DNA from: an uncultured Candidatus Saccharibacteria bacterium
GTDB lineage: Bacteria > Patescibacteriota > WWE3 > CAZQFB01
NCBI GenBank assembly: GCA_964592525.1
Contig: CAZQFB010000001.1
Span: 147,454-211,453, forward strand
Length of the DNA stretch: 64,000 nucleotides
Direction of reading: 5' to 3'
In this document: piece after piece, positions 24,332-32,774 of the stretch
Layout: each line of letters begins with the position of its first letter
Numbering within the stretch: position 1 is the stretch's first letter
Notes under the pieces: generated by a model
The model's database searches: none
Seen by the model: the letters and a program-made list of their open reading frames with translations, nothing else
Told to the model about the DNA's origin: nothing
Made by a program: the position numbers and the translations under genes

Positions 24332-26938
24332 ATGGTTGCTGATGCTCTCTTAACCCCAATGATGAAACAGTATCTTTCGCTTAAGAAAGAATACGATGAT
24401 TGTATCCTCTTTTTCCGGATGGGTGATTTTTACGAGATGTTTCTGGATGATGCCAAGATAGCCTCTCAAGTGCTGGATATTACCCTGACAGCTAGAGATA
24501 AAAAGAAACAAATTCCTATGGCGGGCGTGCCCTATCACGCAGTTGATTCGTATTTAGCTAAGATGGTGGGAGCTGGGTATAAAGTAGCGATTTGTGAGCA
24601 AGTGACAGAGCCTGGTTCGGGTCTGGTGGCTCGGGATGTTGTGCGCGTGGTCACTCCGGGTACTGTGCTGGACGAAAAATCTCTGGACAAAGGCAAGAAT
24701 AACTATGTCTTAAGCCTAAGCTTGAAGACAAAAAAAAATATCGGTTTTGCTTTAGCGGATGTTTCTACGGGTAAGTTTTTGGTGGCTGAATATCCTTTAA
24801 CTAATCTTGCCGGTCAGTTAGCAGATGAGCTGGTCAGATTCTCTCCCAGAGAATGCATTTTAAGTGAATCATCCTACGCTGATCCGGTTCTGCTTAGAGA
24901 ATTACGCCAGTTTCGTCATTTAAATATTTATTGTTTTCACTCTTGGGAGCAGTATGCTTCTTGTGCGCAGCAAGTGCTTAAAGAGCATTTTAAGGTCACT
25001 AGTTTACGTGGTTTGGGCATAACAGGTGCGGAAGAAATGGCAGCAGCAGCAACACTTTTGGGGTACCTGCAACAAACACAAAAAAGCCAACTGTCTCATC
25101 TCAAAACGATTTCTTCTGCCCGGAAAGAAAACCATTTAGTGATGGATCGTTCCACAATTTTAAATCTTGAGCTTTTTGCCACAATCCGGGAAGGGGACAA
25201 AAGGGGCTCGTTACTTGAGGTTTTGGATGATACTAAAACTGCCATGGGTAGTCGCTTACTTAGAGAATGGGTGTTAGCTCCGTTGATTGAGCTGGCAGAA
25301 ATTAACAAGCGCTTAGAGGCGACGCAATATTTGGTGACTAACCGTCAAGTGCGAGGTGAATTACGCGAGCTCTTAACGGGAATCCTTGATTTGGAAAGAT
25401 TGCTGGCGAGATTGTCTGCTGGTTTGGGTTCAGCTCGTGAGCTGATCACCCTTAAACGCTCTTTGCGTAATGGGCTACAGCTTAGAGAAATTCTGCCCGT
25501 GGCTAGTCAGGAAGTAGTTATTTTAGCGTCTCTGTTTCCCCAAACAGTGATCACTTCCGCGACCAAACTACTGGCTAAGTTACAGGATCAGCTTGTTGAA
25601 GAACCTCCTTTGGAGGTGCGGGTAGGGGGTATGTTTAAGCAAGGCGTTAATCCTGAATTGGATGGGTTGTTAACTCAATTAGAAGGTGGTACCTCTTTTT
25701 TAACTGCTTACGAAGAAACGGAAAGAAAAAGAACGGGTATTAATTCTCTTAAGGTTAGGTATAACCAGGTTTTTGGGTATTACCTTGAAGTGAGTAAAGC
25801 TAATCTGCCCCAGGTCCCAACAGATTATCTTCGCAAACAGACTTTAGTTAATGCCGAAAGATTTATCACGCCCCAACTAAAAGAGTACGAAGAGCAGATT
25901 TTAACGGCTAAAGAAAAAAGGAGTGCCTTAGAATACCAGCTTTGGTTAGAGCTGGTGAAGGAGGTCTTAGCGGAACTTGATAATTTGCAGTACTTGGCAC
26001 GGTCAATCGCGACCATTGATTGTTTTGCGGCTTTGGCGCAAGTAGCGGAAGTTAATAGGTATGTTCGTCCTGAACTGTTTCCATCAGGAGAGCTGATCAT
26101 TAGGCAAGGTCGCCACCCGGTAGTGGAAAAATTACTTAACGAAGAAACTTTTGTGCCCAACGATGTTCAGTTTATTCCTAAAGAACGTGACTTAATTTTG
26201 TTGACTGGTCCGAATATGGCGGGTAAATCTGTTTATATGCGCCAGGTGGCTTTGATTGTGTTGTTAGCGCAAATGGGTAGTTTTGTGCCGGCAAACGAAG
26301 CCCGCTTACCTTTGACGGATAAGTTATTTGTGCGCAGTGGTGCTAGTGATCTGATTACCGCTAATTTGTCTACTTTTATGGTGGAAATGCTGGAAACTGC
26401 TCATATTTTGCACCATGCCACCTCCCGAAGCCTGGTGCTACTTGATGAGATTGGTCGCGGTACTAGTACCTATGATGGTTTGAGTTTGGCTTGGGCAGTG
26501 GTGGAATATTTAGCGTCTCTTTCAGAAGGTTGCCCCCGCACTATTTTTGCTACTCATTACCATGAATTACAGGTTTTAGCCGAGCGCTTAAGTGGGGTGG
26601 TGAAAGCGCAAGTCTTGGTTGAGGAAGATACTGCCGGTTTACGCTTTTTGCATACTGTGGTTGCTGGAGGGGCTTCCCATAGTTACGGTTTAGCGGTGGC
26701 TTCCTTAGCTGGCATCCCTGAAGCAGTAATCCAAAGAGCATTAGCGGTCTTGGCGGTTTTGGAAGCGAAAGAACAGACTCGCCCGGGTGAGGTGGCGGTA
26801 GTGCCTTATGCCCAGCAATTAAGCCTAATTTCCGAACAACCGCATCCAGTGTTGGACTTATTAAGAGCCTTGGACCTGGACCAGCTTACACCTTTAGAGG
26901 CACTGCAGAAATTGCATGACTTGAAAAATCAGTTGTGA
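24332..26938 (+). CDS. mutS: DNA mismatch repair protein MutS
   Basis: [31 protein letters not shown]-term, Walker A GPNMAGKS, 868 aa. Confidence 0.95.
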
Positions 26939-28698
26939 GCGAGAGAGGTGCTATACTCCTGAATATGGAAGGTCAAATCAGGAAATTACCCGACGAAGTG
27001 ATCACTCAAATTGCCGCTGGAGAGGTGGTGGAAAGACCGGCTTCAATTGTCAAAGAATTGGTTGAAAACGCGCTGGATGCTGAAGCGACCGAGATTATGG
27101 TGAGCGTTGTTGAGGGTGGTATTAAAGGTATCAGAGTGCAAGATAACGGGGTGGGGATGAATGACCTGGATTTACAAAGGTGTGTTTTAGCTCATACGAC
27201 CAGTAAGATCAACGTTTTTGAGGATTTGGTTAACCTTAATTCTTTTGGTTTTAGAGGGGAAGCTTTGGCGGCGATTGCGGCGGTGAGTAAATTTACTATT
27301 GCTAGTCGGCAAAACCATAAGCCGATGGGATATGCCTTGGAAGTTGTTTATGGCACTTGCGGTAAAATCCAGTCCATGGGAATGTCCTGCGGTACTTTGG
27401 TTACGGTGGAAAATCTATTTAGCACCATTCCCGCGCGACAAAAATTTTTAAAATCAGCCGTGACCGAATTTAACCATATTCTTGAAGTAGTAGCCTCAAT
27501 GGCGATTTTATTTCCGGAAAAAAGTTTCACCTTAAAACATAATGGCAAGGTAGCTTTATCTTACCCTAAAAGTGCCCAGCTGTCGGAAAGATTAGCCTTA
27601 GTGCTTGGGCAAAACACGGCGGAGAAAATGATTACGGTGGGCAGCGAATCGCCGTATTTAACCGTGACTGGGGTAGTCTCTCGACCAGAGCTGTCTACCA
27701 GTAGAGCCGATAAACAATTTTTATACGTTAATGGGCGTAGAATCACCGATCATTACTTGAGTGCTGCCATTAAAAGAGCTTACGGTACTCTGTTAATGCC
27801 ACGTTCTTACCCGTTGTATGCTCTATTTATTAACCTGCCTTCGGAAATGGTAGATATTAACGTTCATCCGCGAAAAAGTGAGGTGGCTTTTGTTAACAAA
27901 GGCGCCGTATTTCAGTTTTTAAAACAAGCGGTAGCGAAGGGTTTAGTGCAGGTAGATTTAACTTACGGTCGGTACCCAAGCGAGCCAGTGGCTAGTAATT
28001 TTGTTAGGCAAACGGAGGTCTTCGCTTTGCGGAGGACACCAACTATTTCCCACCCCTCTTTAGCGGCGGTGGCTGAAGCGGTCAAATGGCAACAACCCCT
28101 AATATCTTCTGTGGTTAAGCAAACGATTGCGGAAGAAGTCTGGCAGCTTGAGTTATGTTATTTGGTGACGTTGTCGTCGCAAGGTTTGTTGATTGTTGAT
28201 CAGCATGCTGCGCATGAGCGAGTGTTATACGAAAAGTTGTGGCGTGAGTTTAACGAGCAAAAAAAGCAGGGTCGCTCACAAAAACTTTTAGTACCACTTG
28301 AATTGAAGTTGACGGTACCTCAAGAAGAAGCTTTAACAGAACAGCTAACCATTTTGGCAAAAATTGGGTTTCTCTTTTCCGAAACGAAACCTCTGCACGT
28401 AGTTGGTGTACCAGTGTTTTTGGTCGGACGTGATATTTATGCCATTATTCACGAAGTCCTGGACGATATCTTAAACGATTCGCCAGCCGAGATTGATAAC
28501 CAGAGTTTGAGGATACTAACTTATCTTTCTTGTCGGGGCGCGGTTAAGAAAGGGGATTACCTTTCGCCAGAGGAGAGGCAAGCGCTGTTGCGTGAGTTGT
28601 GGCAGTGTGAGAGTGCCTATACCTGTCCTCACGGTAGACCAGTGAGCATTGATCTAGCAATAAAAGATCTTGAAAAGATGTTCAAGAGAGTTATTTGA
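26935..28698 (+). CDS. mutL: DNA mismatch repair protein MutL
   Basis: [39 protein letters not shown] ATPase N-term; GTG start overlapping mutS stop (alternative ATG at 26965). Confidence 0.9.
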
Positions 28699-28775
28699 CT
28701 TAATTACCCCATAGTATTATACTCTGGTGGGCAAATGAAAACATCTGAGATTGATGGTGGTGCTCTGTTTCTAAG

Positions 28776-29678
28776 GTGTTAGGAGCAGTGTGTCGTCCTC
28801 AATTGATAGTTGAGGCCATCGCCTTGAAGTCGGTGGAATTCTACGACGCACTTGAAAAGGAGCAGAAGGTGACAAAGTCAGTGGTAGTAACGGAGGATCT
28901 AAGGAGAGCCTTTGCTCAGCTAAACGAGGTGCAAAAGAGGCTTCTCAATGGAGCGCTAAGACCACTTGATGTCCGAGATCCCCTGCAAGCAATCATCGAG
29001 GGTAGGATGATTGTGCTCGATCGCTTTGCTCTCTTTAGTGAGCTTCTGCTGAGCCCGGCTGATCAGCTGGAGCGTCTCCGAGCATATGACGAGAAATACT
29101 GGGGAGGTGCAATCTGCGAGGAGCTAAAGGGTTTTCAGTTACCCGATGTAGGTCTTCACCCGCAAAGGGTGAAGGATTTGCGGGTTCTTCATGTGGAATT
29201 TGGCTCTCCGGGAGAGACCCTGGAGAGGTGGTGGCAGGTGATCTCAGCTACCCAGCCCGGGTCTTGGCGATCGGGAGATCTCCAGAGTGATTCTGCTCAT
29301 CTGGGTCTCCACAGCCAGGCACGCCACTACCCTCCAGGAATCCATGTGGTTCGCCTAGACCTGGCGGCCCATTGGGAGCCGGAAGCGGGGAGAACCCTGG
29401 TGGATGTATACGCTAGGGTTAGGGAAGCTGGGGAGAAGCTTGCCCATGGTGAGATTCTCTCGGCCTGTGGGCTCCATCCTGATCTGGTAAGGGAGATGGA
29501 TGGAGAGAATCTGCCTTTCGTGGATCTGGCAGGGTATCAGGTATTAATGCCTGGTTTACCGACCTGTCGGGCTGTTCCGTGTCTTTACTGGGATAGCCTC
29601 AGAGGCAAGGTCGCCCTCGACGTCGACTCCATTGACTATTTCCTTCCCTCTTGGGCGGCTCCGGTGCTCAGGGAGTAA
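28776..29678 (+). CDS. DGR target (variable) protein; no recognised domain, GC-rich, VR encodes last ~43 aa
   Basis: 300 aa, GTG start; roughly 57% GC; 3' 127 nt form the VR; no obvious signal peptide or TM. Confidence 0.7.
   Translation: MLGAVCRPQLIVEAIALKSVEFYDALEKEQKVTKSVVVTEDLRRAFAQLNEVQKRLLNGALRPLDVRDPLQAIIEGRMIVLDRFALFSELLLSPADQLERLRAYDEKYWGGAICEELKGFQLPDVGLHPQRVKDLRVLHVEFGSPGETLERWWQVISATQPGSWRSGDLQSDSAHLGLHSQARHYPPGIHVVRLDLAAHWEPEAGRTLVDVYARVREAGEKLAHGEILSACGLHPDLVREMDGENLPFVDLAGYQVLMPGLPTCRAVPCLYWDSLRGKVALDVDSIDYFLPSWAAPVLRE
29548..29674 (+). repeat. DGR variable repeat (VR)
   Basis: 127 nt aligned to 30140-30266 with 18 mismatches, every one at a position that is A in the downstream copy; 3' 27 nt (ttgggcggctccggtgctcaggga) identical and GC-rich (IMH-like). 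Confidence 0.85.
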
Positions 29679-30139
29679 GTACTCCTACTTAGGGTCTTAG
29701 GGCTTTTGGTGATAAGTCCTTGGACCTTTGTTTGAGAGAAAGAGAAGGGGTGTCTTCTGAAATCTGCTTGCAGATTATGGAGGCACCCCTCTTTGTTTTA
29801 TCAATAGGCGAAATTATATATTTTGTTTCCCCTCGGCAGGTAATAAAATCTACGCTCTACGGTACATCGAGGATATGGGTGGTTTGTATAAATCATATTG
29901 AGATATAATTCCCTTCGGATGGTAGGTTAATGAACCCTGATTTAAGGATTGGGGAACACCGAGATCTCTCTTTTCGCAACAACTAGCGGAATCAAATTTA
30001 AGACATTAATTTTGAGTGTCTAGAGCGAATAACGAGCACTCCTTGCTGTCTACTGGGGATGGTCAATAGGTCCCGAATGAGATTCAGGAGTTGGATGCGT
30101 CTGGCTCCAGTGGTGTAGAAGGTAGATAGCATATACCGG

Positions 30140-30266
30140 TGCCTGGTTTACCGACCTGTCGGGCTGTTCCGTATCTTAACTGGAATAGAATCAAAAGCAA
30201 GGTCAACCTCAACGTCAACTCAATTGACAATTTCAATCACAATTGGGCGGCTCCGGTGCTCAGGGA
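30140..30266 (+). repeat. DGR template repeat (TR)
   Basis: Same orientation as VR; in the target reading frame the variable sites fall on first/second positions of AAC/AAT codons (N->Y,D,A,D,D,Y,L,S etc.). Confidence 0.85.
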
Positions 30267-30280
30267 CTGCTTGTTAATAA

Positions 30281-30311
30281 AAGAAGGACGATAAGTCCTT
30301 CTTTTGTTTGC
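30281..30311 (+). terminator. Rho-independent terminator immediately after TR
   Basis: stem aagaaggac/gtccttctt, loop gataa, followed by TTTTGTTTG. Confidence 0.6.
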
Positions 30312-30387
30312 TGTTAGTAGCAACATAATTTCAGTGCGATCGCTTAGCAGTAATGTTGTTAATGTAATGAAATAGCTGGTAGTCTCT

Positions 30388-30756
30388 TTAGCTGACCGAA
30401 CGCAACCATCCGCCTAACATCTTACCAATTGTAATAAGTTGTGCTTCCAGTTCTAGGTAATGCTTGTTTGATAAACACTGACAATCCTTACCCATGCGGA
30501 TGAGAAGTCGCAGGAGATCGAGTTCACTTGAGGCTTGTTGCAGATAAGTTTTTTTTAGCTTGCCATCTGAGGAGTTAGCTGTTCTTATTGTAAGCCTTAA
30601 TATTTCTAAAGTTTGGTTTTGGGCGGTTGCTCCCAGGGTATATCTTTGATGTTTGGGAAATTTAACTAACTGCACATGGAGATGTTTGTACAATTCATAA
30701 AGATTATGAACGATTGGTATATCGTGTGGTTTCGTAGGGTTAGATTTTGTAATCAT
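30388..30756 (-). CDS. avd: DGR accessory variability determinant (Avd)-like four-helix-bundle protein
   Basis: 122 aa; FPKHQRYTLGATAQNQ...LIRMGKDCQCLSNKHYLELEAQLITIGKMLGGWLRS resembles the four-helix-bundle/Avd family (BPP-1 Avd ...VLIAEVGRILGSWIARV). Confidence 0.75.
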   Translation of the reverse strand: MITKSNPTKPHDIPIVHNLYELYKHLHVQLVKFPKHQRYTLGATAQNQTLEILRLTIRTANSSDGKLKKTYLQQASSELDLLRLLIRMGKDCQCLSNKHYLELEAQLITIGKMLGGWLRSVS

Positions 30757-30762
30757 TAGGTG

Positions 30763-31749
30763 ATGAGTGTAGCAACTTTTTACAAAATATGCTCTCCTAA
30801 GTGGTTGTTTGAATCATGGGATACATTTAGAAAGGGAAAGAGGAAAAGACTTGAGGTGATGCTCTACGAGCGGAATTTGGAAAGGAACATCTTTTGCTTG
30901 AGTGGAAATCTTTTGTCTAAGAAATATAAGCATGGTGTCTACGAGCAATTTAAGGTCACTGATCCTAAATTGCGGAGAATAAGTAAAGCATGCGTACAGG
31001 ATCGTTTGGTTCATCAAGCTGTGGTTTCTGGTATTGAGTCCTCCTTCGAGAAGAGGTTTATTTATGACAGCTACTCCTGCAGGAGTGGCAAAGGCACTCA
31101 TGCGGCTGTTGCTAGGTTGCGAAGTTTTCTGGGGAAAGAAAGTCGGAATAATACTCGGACAACCTATGTTCTTAAATGTGACGTTAAAAGATTTTTCGAT
31201 TGCTTGGATCATGGTATTTTGATGGCTCTAATTAATAGGGTGGTTAAAGATAGTGATACCCTATGGCTGATAGAGGAAATTGTAGATAGTTTTTCTATCT
31301 TTCCTGGTAAAGGTGTTCCTCTTGGTAATCTCACAAGCCAGTTATTTGCCAATATTTATTTACATGAGCTGGATCGGTTCATAAAAAATGATTTGGGGAT
31401 TAAGTATTACGTTCGCTACTGTGACGATTTTGTAATTGTTGACAGTGATTCCAGGTATCTTCAGGGGTTGATCCCTATTCTAGAGGGTTTCTTAAGAAAT
31501 TATCTCAATCTCTGTCTGCATCCTAATAAGATTACCTTACGTACCTGGAATAGCGGGATGGATTTTCTGGGGTATATCCTAAAGCCTGATTGTACATTAC
31601 TCAGGACCAAGACAAAGAATCGTGCATTAAGACGGGTGAATAGCAATAATCTGCCTTCATATCTTGGTATTTGTTCTCACTGTGACTCGTTTGAGCTTCA
31701 ACAGATTCTCAAGTGTAAAGCTGGTAGTCTAGCACGAGAGGGGTCTTAG
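30763..31749 (+). CDS. DGR-type reverse transcriptase
   Basis: RT motifs 1-7 present: PKLRRISKACVQDRLVHQA, SYSCRSGKGTHAAV, YVLKCDVKRFFDCLDH, GVPLGNLTSQLFANIYLHELD (SQ variant of motif 4 typical of DGR RTs), YVRYCDDFVIV, LCLHPNKI, FLGY; no maturase/endonuclease domain. Confidence 0.85.
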   Translation: MSVATFYKICSPKWLFESWDTFRKGKRKRLEVMLYERNLERNIFCLSGNLLSKKYKHGVYEQFKVTDPKLRRISKACVQDRLVHQAVVSGIESSFEKRFIYDSYSCRSGKGTHAAVARLRSFLGKESRNNTRTTYVLKCDVKRFFDCLDHGILMALINRVVKDSDTLWLIEEIVDSFSIFPGKGVPLGNLTSQLFANIYLHELDRFIKNDLGIKYYVRYCDDFVIVDSDSRYLQGLIPILEGFLRNYLNLCLHPNKITLRTWNSGMDFLGYILKPDCTLLRTKTKNRALRRVNSNNLPSYLGICSHCDSFELQQILKCKAGSLAREGS

Positions 31750-31862
31750 CTAGTTAGGGAGACTTTTTAAGAGATAGACTATCGGGCATATAGCTAACTT
31801 TGCTACAATATACAGTAGCTAATCAGTTACTTATTATTAGTTACTGGTTAATAATTATTAAT

Positions 31863-32774
31863 ATGCCTGTCCAGCAATTATTCTTGCCTCATCAACAATC
31901 GGGTACCCGTGCCCATGCTATTTCCCCCTTAGCTTTTACTTTGTATATCGCTTTTGTGTTGGTGTCGATTATTTCCTTCCAAATATTGGCTAAAGAAGCG
32001 GGTTTGGTGCTTGGTTATGCGACAGACATCCACGAACAAGAAATTGTGTCGCTGACTAACCAACAAAGAAGGGCTGAAGGTTTAAACGAATTGACCTACA
32101 GTGAGGAGTTGGCTAAAGCGGCTCAATTAAAGGCAGAAAGCATGTTTACGCTTGATTATTGGGCTCATATCGCTCCAAATGGTACTACGCCTTGGGTGTT
32201 TATTGAACAAGCGGGTTATGATTTTTATGCGGCGGGAGAGAACTTGGCGAGGGATTTTAATGATTCAGAATCGGTAGTTAAGGCTTGGATGAAATCGCCC
32301 TCACATGCCGAAAACATTTTGGGATCACTTTATGCTGATATTGGGGTAGCAGTGGTTAATGGTGAGTTAGCTGGCAGCGAAACCACTTTAGTGGTACAGA
32401 TGTTTGGGATTACCAGAGGCAGTACGGTTGCGCCACCGTCTCCACAACCTCCGGTGCAGGTTAGTCCGGAAGCGGTGTCGGTCAATGTTGGTGAAAACCC
32501 AGCTGCGCTGGAAGCGGAAATACCAGCACCCGTGGAAATTACCGAACCAGCCTTGGCGGTTGAGCCAGTACAGACTGGTTATCAGCTTGGTGAAGCGACC
32601 AAAGCGATCTCACTGGGCTTTGCCTTCTTTTTACTGATTTTGTTTGTGCTCGATTTACTGTTAATCACCAAAAAGGGGATTGTGCGCGTTTCAGGTAATA
32701 CCTTGGCTCATGTGAGTATGCTCCTTTTTATTATCGGTGCTTTGTGGTGGATTAACGGGGGTTCTGTTTTATGA
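31863..32774 (+). CDS. CAP/SCP/PR1-like domain protein, membrane-anchored, with P/A/E-rich linker and C-terminal TM
   Basis: LTNQQRRAEGLNELTYSEELAKAAQLKAESMF...HIAPNG...GENLARDF...WMKSPSHAENIL matches the CAP domain; start at ATG 31863. Confidence 0.65.
   Translation: MPVQQLFLPHQQSGTRAHAISPLAFTLYIAFVLVSIISFQILAKEAGLVLGYATDIHEQEIVSLTNQQRRAEGLNELTYSEELAKAAQLKAESMFTLDYWAHIAPNGTTPWVFIEQAGYDFYAAGENLARDFNDSESVVKAWMKSPSHAENILGSLYADIGVAVVNGELAGSETTLVVQMFGITRGSTVAPPSPQPPVQVSPEAVSVNVGENPAALEAEIPAPVEITEPALAVEPVQTGYQLGEATKAISLGFAFFLLILFVLDLLLITKKGIVRVSGNTLAHVSMLLFIIGALWWINGGSVL

Follow-up and report, generated by a model that had tools for sequence, protein, structure and literature searches.

A predicted covarying RNA structure brackets the template repeat of a B3-type diversity-generating retroelement in a Candidatus Saccharibacteria genome

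In the survey of Wu et al. 2018 (NAR 46:11; PMC5758913), 90% of the diversity-generating retroelements (DGRs) from the candidate phyla radiation (CPR) have architecture B3, written TR-(avd)-RT, in which the template repeat (TR) and the reverse transcriptase (RT) gene are on the plus strand, avd lies inverted between them, and the target gene is upstream. The main text of that paper does not use the word promoter, nor does it discuss RNA structure around TR. CPR elements make up about one-third of the DGRs catalogued in the cited survey (126/372). Roux et al. 2021 described a cell-encoded DGR clade restricted to Patescibacteria, their clade 2, to which B3 probably corresponds. The template RNA of CPR elements has so far been interpreted by analogy with one structurally solved phage system, in which the RNA scaffold is 3' of TR. 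Here we analyze the DGR in a 64,000-nucleotide (nt) stretch of DNA from an uncultured Candidatus Saccharibacteria bacterium (assembly GCA_964592525.1, contig CAZQFB010000001.1, positions 147,454 to 211,453; hereafter the window), and describe a structured RNA element predicted directly 5' of its TR.

The solved system is that of Bordetella phage BPP-1. Its RNA comprises the 3' end of avd, TR and a region of 140 nt after TR, named Sp. The Sp region begins with an Avd-binding stem-loop and a primer strand that pairs with the 3' end of TR; a stop strand, whose partner is the sequence directly before TR, comes next, and then a small hairpin, two adenosines, a single-stranded 'thumb ring' and an RT-binding hairpin (Handa et al., NAR 2018; bioRxiv 10.1101/2023.10.23.563531). 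In the cryo-electron microscopy structure, the template:primer duplex abuts the 'cPRT Stop' duplex, and TR is looped out between the two. For 207 of 278 DGRs that contain Avd, CPR elements included, the same authors reported a putative Avd-binding stem-loop immediately downstream of TR, so that a stem-loop after TR has already been noted in a generic way.

The window contains a complete and real DGR, the features of which are listed in Table 1. The two plus-strand repeats are 126 nt long apiece, with an offset of 592 nt and a spacer of 466 nt between them. They differ at 18 positions, and in every case the downstream copy has an adenine; this identifies the downstream copy as TR and the upstream copy as the variable repeat (VR). 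The mismatches affect 18 of the 34 TR adenines, with 16 of them in the first or second codon position of the target open reading frame (ORF), whose stop codon follows 1 nt after the end of VR. The final 24 nt, TTGGGCGGCTCCGGTGCTCAGGGA, are the same in VR and TR, as expected of the GC-rich segments known as initiation of mutagenic homology (IMH) and IMH*. The motifs (I/L)GxxxSQ and YxDD are hallmarks of DGR reverse transcriptases, and both have counterparts in the translated RT.

Table 1. Features of the DGR, in window coordinates.
Feature	Position	Strand	Details
Target gene	28776-29678	+	300 amino acids from GTG 28776 (database gene call, 296); VR forms the last 42 codons
VR	29549-29674	+	18 mismatches to TR, all at TR adenines
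Nested inverted repeats, then CTTTGTTTT	29732-29804	+	Probable intrinsic terminator of the target gene
TATAAT, candidate -10 box of a TR-RNA promoter	29904-29909	+	TG-n-TATAAT in relatives; conserved in an alignment of nine close relatives
Leader, first half	29917-30029	+	GGAGAGUAGG-like start; covarying hairpin at 29935-29954 (alignment A6, RNAalifold)
Structured RNA element directly 5' of TR	30030-30139	+	Covariance model R1, covariation
P0, 5' strand	30030-30042	+	Part of the structured element
P1, 5' strand	30043-30054	+	Part of the structured element
Hairpin A	30056-30074	+	Part of the structured element; followed by an A-rich joiner
Hairpin C	30087-30108	+	Part of the structured element; followed by a conserved AGUGG..UAGAAGG segment
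P1, 3' strand	30121-30132	+	Part of the structured element
TR	30141-30266	+	Same repeat comparison as VR
P0, 3' strand	30264-30276	+	Last 3 nt of TR, C/C mismatch, 9 nt; pairs with 30030-30042
Stem-loop	30276-30311	both	14 bp, 5-nt loop; A-tract 5', T-tract 3'; terminator-like on either strand
avd	30756->30388	-	122 amino acids; Pfam bAvd PF22296, E = 2e-18; inverted relative to TR and RT
DGR reverse transcriptase	30760-31749	+	Start at GTG 30760 or ATG 30763; Pfam RVT_1, E = 1e-21; LGNLTSQ, YCDD

An earlier reading of the DNA, made by a model from the sequence alone (the sequence-only reading), had called the architecture non-canonical because avd runs opposite to TR and RT. The inversion is real, but it is not new. 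The core order of the window locus fits the definition of B3, from which it differs in no aspect of gene order, orientation or target position; its named relatives are Patescibacteria/CPR genomes, and it is located in a chromosome. The locus is thus one more B3 member, and the inverted avd matters little in itself, being the published norm for CPR DGRs.

Relatives of the RT, which belongs to a large family (6632 database proteins at E ≤ 1e-40), were gathered from genomes, metagenomes, viral contigs and protein look-ups. We used as our comparison set the 23 loci whose RT is at least 41% identical to that of the window. Six of the eight genomes in which relatives were found carry Patescibacteria, Parcubacteria, Saccharibacteria or Yanofskybacteria names. 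All 23 loci have the core TR(+)-avd(-)-RT(+). The target gene changes place among the loci. Most have it upstream on the same strand; in L019, L020 and L023 it is upstream and inverted, and L021 and L098 have it inverted and downstream of RT. We therefore take the conserved unit to be TR-(avd)-RT together with the flanks of TR.

Within this unit, avd and RT are packed head to head. A longer N-terminus of Avd is impossible because, upstream of ATG 30754-30756, the frame reaches a stop before any other start codon, and an N-terminal motif common to all relatives confines the RT start to GTG 30760 or ATG 30763, so that the two start codons are only 3-6 nt apart. The N-termini abut or overlap in all 23 loci (extrapolated gap -36 to +41 nt), which bears out the earlier observation that there is no intergenic room between the two genes. 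It follows that the avd and RT promoters are within each other's coding sequence, or that the mRNAs are leaderless, or that RT is fed by transcription reading through the hairpin after TR. In 9 of the 23 loci a -10-like hexamer precedes the RT start by 70-84 nt; it falls on conserved avd codons (E-L-Y) read in antisense, and because it is inseparable from this coding constraint it is no proof of a promoter.

The evidence for structure comes from the region upstream of TR, where conserved blocks are present in all aligned loci. Every single-sequence fold of this region has the same long-range helix, in which a segment just 5' of TR pairs with a segment about 100 nt further upstream. A covariance model of the region (R1; 13 training sequences, 113 positions, 18 pairs) has a single match in the 64-kb window, at 87.4 bits and E = 1e-18. 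R1 finds one match per B3 locus, which in every case lies on the TR strand and ends 0-8 nt short of TR, and it recovers seven loci that were not used in training (L027, L103, L015, L021, L014, L020 and L008). The long-range helix (P1) and hairpin C covary: in an alignment of 20 sequences, 91.4% of the cells are paired, as against 63.6% in shuffles and 37-51% when the pairing partners are slid, and compensatory changes occur in 16 of the 18 pairs, a result equaled by none of 500 shuffles. G-U pairs are frequent, which assigns the structure to the plus-strand RNA.

A third helix, P0, was first suggested by the fold of the whole putative RNA. Its 5' motif adjoins the 5' side of P1 and has the form UUCGAGUA-C-UCC in relatives, and its partner overlaps the end of TR. 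The two strands change together: they are UAACGAGCA/UGCUUGUUA in the window, UUCGAGUA/UACUCGAA in L098, UGAUGGG/CCCAUCA in L001 and GAUUUUAGA/UCUAAAAUC in L021. Duplexes between cognate strands have a mean energy of -11.45 kcal/mol, compared with -7.76 kcal/mol for strands taken from different loci, and none of 5000 permutations equals this. On a MAFFT alignment that had not been fitted to the pairing, 74% of the P0 cells are paired and 9 of the 12 pairs have compensatory changes; on the same alignment P0, P1 and hairpin C taken jointly are 83% paired, compared with 61% in shuffles (0/500 equal). RNAalifold, run on the composite alignment, recovers P1 and hairpin C and misses P0. This is because MAFFT fails to align the covarying strand after TR, and for this reason P0 was tested as a named structure and by permutation across loci.

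Along the predicted RNA, the parts follow in the order P0 5' strand, P1 5' strand, hairpin A, an A-rich single strand (CGCAUAAAAUACAG in relatives), hairpin C, a conserved single strand, P1 3' strand, about 8 nt, TR, P0 3' strand, a stem-loop and a U-tract. P0 and P1 are contiguous on their 5' side, and on their 3' side TR forms a bulge of about 135 nt between them. The sequence-only reading had pointed to another structure in the VR-TR spacer, but the conserved and covarying element is at 29917-30139, which it overlooked: by comparative analysis, this is where the true structured element of the spacer is, with three covarying helices (P0, P1 and hairpin C) bracketing TR.

Further upstream, the alignments contain a promoter-like box at about -236 from TR. 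Thirteen of the 23 loci have a -10-like hexamer at -233 to -249 relative to the start of TR, with TG before most of them; in most loci of a subclade with short leaders the hexamer is closer to TR, L020 being an exception at -269. A conserved GGAGAGUAGG-like sequence begins within about 10 nt of the box, and is followed by a further covarying hairpin. In this first half of the leader, 10 of the 19 pairs predicted by RNAalifold have compensatory changes. In all, about 225 nt of conserved leader separate the box from TR. A generic scan for promoters and terminators had a site count not above that of shuffles, and it missed both the conserved -10 box and the hairpin after TR; a comparative alignment was needed to see these elements.

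Upstream of the box, the nested inverted repeats (outer arms 29732-29755/29781-29804, inner arms 29761-29767/29770-29776) fold as RNA at -33.7 kcal/mol, with z = -4.6 relative to shuffles, and their inner part was called by the generic terminator scan. Most relatives have a hairpin and T-run that end the target gene directly upstream of the -10 box. Since the repeats are about 100 nt upstream of the promoter box, are followed by CTTTGTTTT and have these equivalents in relatives, they are probably the terminator of the target gene. The nested repeats pointed out near 29747-29800 by the sequence-only reading are thus genuine, but they are not likely to be part of the TR RNA.

On the other side of TR there is a strong stem-loop, with arms at 30276-30289 and 30295-30308 that are 93% complementary, and a T-rich tail to 30311. 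As RNA it folds at -19.8 kcal/mol on the plus strand (z = -7.5) and at -14.1 kcal/mol on the minus strand (z = -6.2). The hairpin and T-tract noted earlier at this place are therefore well founded, and 22 of the 23 loci have a stem-loop like it, beginning 2-21 nt after TR, with 7-15 bp, loops of 3-7 nt and energies of -11 to -23 kcal/mol. On its 3' side there are on average 6.0 U per 12 nt, compared with 3.2 expected from composition, and in about ten loci a run of at least four U (UUUU/UUUUU) directly follows a GC-rich stem. Many loci also have an A-tract on the 5' side, a trait of bidirectional terminators. The window copy has the stable GC-containing stem and U-tract of a rho-independent terminator. 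The avd stop is inside or adjoining the hairpin in the relatives, 12-43 nt after the end of TR (with the exception of one overlapping ORF), as compared with 121 nt in the window. The hairpin is thus a conserved part of the unit, placed where the convergent TR RNA and avd mRNA must end. Its sequence is terminator-like, and its position is also that of the Avd-binding stem-loop in the Bordetella DGR RNA (Sp 3-33), a match that the sequence-only reading had missed. The two roles are compatible, because a terminator hairpin remains on the RNA that it terminates. We note that the 79 nt between the hairpin and the avd stop in the window (30312-30387) have no equivalent in relatives, and that a second hairpin is predicted there.

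The conserved -10 box, the leader and the hairpin with its U-rich tail, taken together, suggest that the TR RNA is probably its own small transcription unit, starting inside the VR-TR spacer. A short independent TR transcript had been proposed from the window by itself, and the comparison with relatives lends support to it.

In B3 loci, the place of the Bordetella Sp is taken by the avd coding sequence read backwards, and with the avd stop in or next to the hairpin in relatives there is no room for a 3' scaffold of the Bordetella type. A scaffold antisense to avd was also considered and was rejected on duplex tests, in which none of ten loci had complementarity above shuffles between the 130 nt that follow the hairpin and either the 3' end of TR or the 60 nt before TR (RNAduplex, z -2.4 to +1.5).

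The Bordetella features have plausible counterparts here in a different order. By analogy, both RNAs have a stem-loop directly 3' of TR, which here would be the Avd-binding one; a duplex at the TR 3' end beside a duplex that involves the nucleotides right before TR, so placed that TR loops out; a scaffold strand that continues into two hairpins with an A-rich single strand between them; and a G as the first template base beside the duplex (G30263 here, G117 in Bordetella). They differ in that the scaffold strand is 5' of TR here and 3' of TR in Bordetella, in that the window RNA probably ends right after the stem-loop, and in that avd is not in sense orientation within the RNA; nor is there sequence similarity. 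The arrangement looks like a circular permutation of the Bordetella RNA, with the break between the Avd stem-loop and the primer strand.

Conserved structured RNAs beside reverse transcriptase genes are also known from the 'RT' motifs of Weinberg et al. 2017 (PMC5737381) and Rfam, among which RT-10 is the TR-RT spacer of BPP-1. The element described here differs from RT-1 to RT-19 in being upstream of TR and in having no covariance-model match to them. With Rfam 15, no relevant family matched positions 28500-32000 of the window at E ≤ 10, nor the equivalent regions of nine related loci at E ≤ 0.1. The chain order also recalls that of retrons. In retron msr-msd RNA, for example that of Ec86, a 5' strand forms the a1/a2 duplex with the sequence that directly follows the template, and the priming nucleotide is at the end of this strand; RT-recognition hairpins come next, and then the template, which is copied from its 3' end. 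By this comparison, P0 would stand in place of the a1/a2 duplex. Unlike a retron, the present system has an RT with DGR hallmarks and an Avd partner, its template is homologous to a target gene and is mutagenized at A, and no branched multicopy single-stranded DNA is implied.

Viral contigs (L031-L040) provide a further comparison. They carry phage DGRs with the canonical order avd(+)-TR-RT and with RTs 29-33% identical to that of the window, and a structured RNA of the same layout is predicted between avd and TR. At 110-125 nt upstream of TR, this layout has an ACUGAGU motif, a closing helix, two hairpins and a conserved CAAnCCAUGACGAAG segment, with compensatory changes in 13 of the 24 predicted pairs; TR is only 25-63 nt before RT. 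Because the layout is the same in DGRs of canonical order, the 5' scaffold appears to be a property of the lineage and not a consequence of avd inversion. Such a scaffold would instead explain why the TR-RT interval could accept an inverted gene.

The analysis shows the DGR identity, the conserved architecture, the conserved promoter-like box, the three covarying helices and the conserved hairpin with its U-rich tail, and from these we infer transcript ends, protein binding, a priming site and a mode of avd and RT expression as follows. The target gene would end in VR and be closed by its own terminator at the nested repeats. TR would lie in the middle of a non-coding RNA of its own, about 395 nt long, which would start about 8-10 nt after the extended -10 box and end at the hairpin and U-tract. 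Transcription of avd would converge on this hairpin from the opposite side. RT would diverge from avd without a spacer, and either the two promoters would be inside the partner's coding sequence or RT would be partly fed by read-through of the hairpin. The 225-nt leader would be an RT-binding scaffold, with the RT-Avd complex binding both the leader and the 3' stem-loop, and P1 (30043-30054/30121-30132) and P0 (30030-30042/the last 3 nt of TR plus 30267-30276) would bracket the looped-out TR. Complementary DNA (cDNA) synthesis would then start at the TR 3' end beside P0, where G30263 is the next template base, and stop at P1. The 3' stem-loop would be both an intrinsic terminator and a grip for Avd. 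Since nothing essential would be 3' of the stem-loop, the TR-RT interval would be free to hold the inverted avd. We consider such a CPR-type B3 DGR, organized in separate transcription units with the leader as a 5' scaffold, to be probable, and we hold this with some reserve.

Several points weigh against this organization. When 30030-30140 is folded as a single sequence, its stability does not exceed that of shuffles (z = -0.35), so that the case for structure there is made by covariation and not by energy. P0 is shorter and less regular than P1, with 74% of its cells paired and with a register that varies relative to the assigned end of TR. The plus-strand U-tails are poor in three of the 23 relatives (L008, L023 and L101), and L101 also has no strong hairpin; the generic terminator scan did not call the window hairpin, likely because its stem runs through the A/U tracts. 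The promoter, the terminator and the RNA ends are all proposed from conservation, and the equivalence with Bordetella is one of topology, with neither sequence similarity nor an Rfam match behind it. In addition, putative stop duplexes that join the 40 nt before TR to the 100 nt after it are reported by Handa et al. for many DGRs, CPR elements among them, and the pairing is different from that of P0 and P1. The range that they searched would miss the P0 5' strand, which is about 100 nt (98-111 nt) upstream of TR.

A rival possibility is that TR and RT are co-transcribed as in Bordetella, with the stem-loop after TR serving for Avd binding only and the RNA continuing through antisense avd into RT. 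Co-transcription would account for the lack of a separate promoter region for RT, there being no intergenic DNA before it, and it sits well with the frequency of Avd-type stem-loops 3' of TR found by Handa et al., with the three loci that have weak U-tails and with the lack of a terminator call at the hairpin by the consensus scan. It does not explain the roughly two-fold excess of U on the 3' stem side in the 23 loci, or why about ten loci have at least four U directly after a GC-rich stem, and it requires a long antisense RNA over the whole of avd that would collide with avd expression. Partial read-through fits equally with separate transcription units, so that the difference between the two is mostly one of degree; as a full alternative, we regard co-transcription as unlikely, while taking it seriously.

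It is also conceivable that the leader sets the level of TR RNA as a cis-regulatory element, for instance an attenuator that responds to a ligand or protein, or an element for RNA stability, and that priming and stopping are done by other elements. Structured 5' leaders behind promoters are usually regulatory, and the fold of the window copy is not unusually stable. Yet the helices form no terminator/antiterminator pair. They pair instead with nucleotides that flank TR on both sides, P1 ending about 8 nt before TR and P0 including its last bases, as positioning of a template needs; the element strictly co-occurs with TR, one per locus, wherever the target is; and the same layout is found in phage DGRs of canonical order. 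A purely regulatory leader thus seems improbable. Still less credible is a functional role in the DGR for the nested repeats at 29747-29800 and for an AT hairpin at the target stop codon, as leader structure of the TR RNA or as a cruciform at the target site. The repeats do fold far better than shuffles, and the DGRs of Bordetella and Legionella require a hairpin after VR (Wu et al., PMC5758913). The repeats are however upstream of the -10 box, with a T-run after them, in the position of the terminator-like hairpins behind the target genes of relatives. The stop-codon hairpin is at chance level and unconserved, and a hairpin after VR is in any case not a defining feature of DGRs, being found in 34% of them only (Wu et al., PMC5758913). 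For the hairpin itself, which the sequence-only reading had placed at 29676-29691 (29671-29686 in the minimum-energy fold), we found z = 0.18 over 29665-29700, with 104 of 200 shuffles folding equally well, and no consistent counterpart among 21 relatives. A conserved cruciform after VR is accordingly rejected.

Beyond the single locus, separate transcription with a 5' scaffold leads to a wider proposal, namely that the template RNA is circularly permuted throughout a large DGR lineage made up of CPR B3 elements and the related phage DGRs with canonical gene order. In this RNA the RT-binding scaffold, primer and stop strands would be 5' of TR, TR would be bracketed by coaxial P0 and P1, and the whole would be a self-standing unit some 400 nt long, with a dedicated promoter and an intrinsic terminator doubling as the Avd-binding stem-loop. 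We consider the arguments for and against this generalization to be evenly balanced. The scaffold 5' of TR, the P0/P1 pair and a dedicated promoter and terminator for TR in CPR DGRs were not found described in Rfam 15, the Weinberg RT motifs or full-text literature searches, although an earlier description may exist. If the TR RNA is indeed short and autonomous with a 5' scaffold, then searches for DGR RNAs that are confined to the region downstream of TR miss the scaffold, and the minimal list of parts for transplanting such a DGR becomes explicit and testable: promoter, 225-nt leader, TR, hairpin, avd and RT. The flexible placement of avd in DGR cassettes, including its inverted place between TR and RT, would gain a mechanistic reason, and the system would have a compact, self-contained RNA with a retron-like chain order.

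The target gene has features of its own. A Pfam search with the target protein gave no domain match, only 5 homologues were found among 5.8 billion proteins, and the AlphaFold2 model is unusable (predicted local distance difference test score, pLDDT, of 38.7). The window has a single copy of the target. The same contig, of 344,256 nt, encodes outside the window a second protein of 298 amino acids (P0122), which is identical to the target over its C-terminal 225 residues or so, including the part encoded by VR, and differs in the N-terminal 75 or so; it could be a recent duplicate serving as a second target, or an assembly artefact.

Just 3' of VR, most related loci have an array of short CTTGG, CTCGG or CTTAGG motifs, with 3-7 copies at a spacing of about 8-10 nt in the 70 nt after VR. 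The array of the window spans 29688-29724 (CTTAGG at 29688 and 29696, TTTTGG at 29704, CTTGG at 29719), and is the densest spot for the motif on both strands of the 64 kb. CTTGG is enriched 12.8-fold in the 70-nt flanks after VR. The array also follows VRs that are remote or inverted (L020, L021, L023 and L098) and is absent after TR. It could mark the target site, taking over from the GC hairpin of Bordetella-type DGRs, or it could serve as a binding array within the 3' untranslated region of the target mRNA.

The DGR is flanked on one side by mutS-like and mutL-like ORFs of 868 and 587 amino acids (24332-28698; named by eye) and on the other by a membrane protein with a CAP/SCP domain (31800-32774; PF00188, E = 7e-17). 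These neighbors indicate a chromosomal setting and no prophage. The G+C content of the target gene is 0.51-0.60, compared with 0.36-0.42 for avd and RT (28850-29750 vs 30350-31850) and about 0.42-0.49 for the flanking genes; the excess extends beyond VR and spans the entire target gene.

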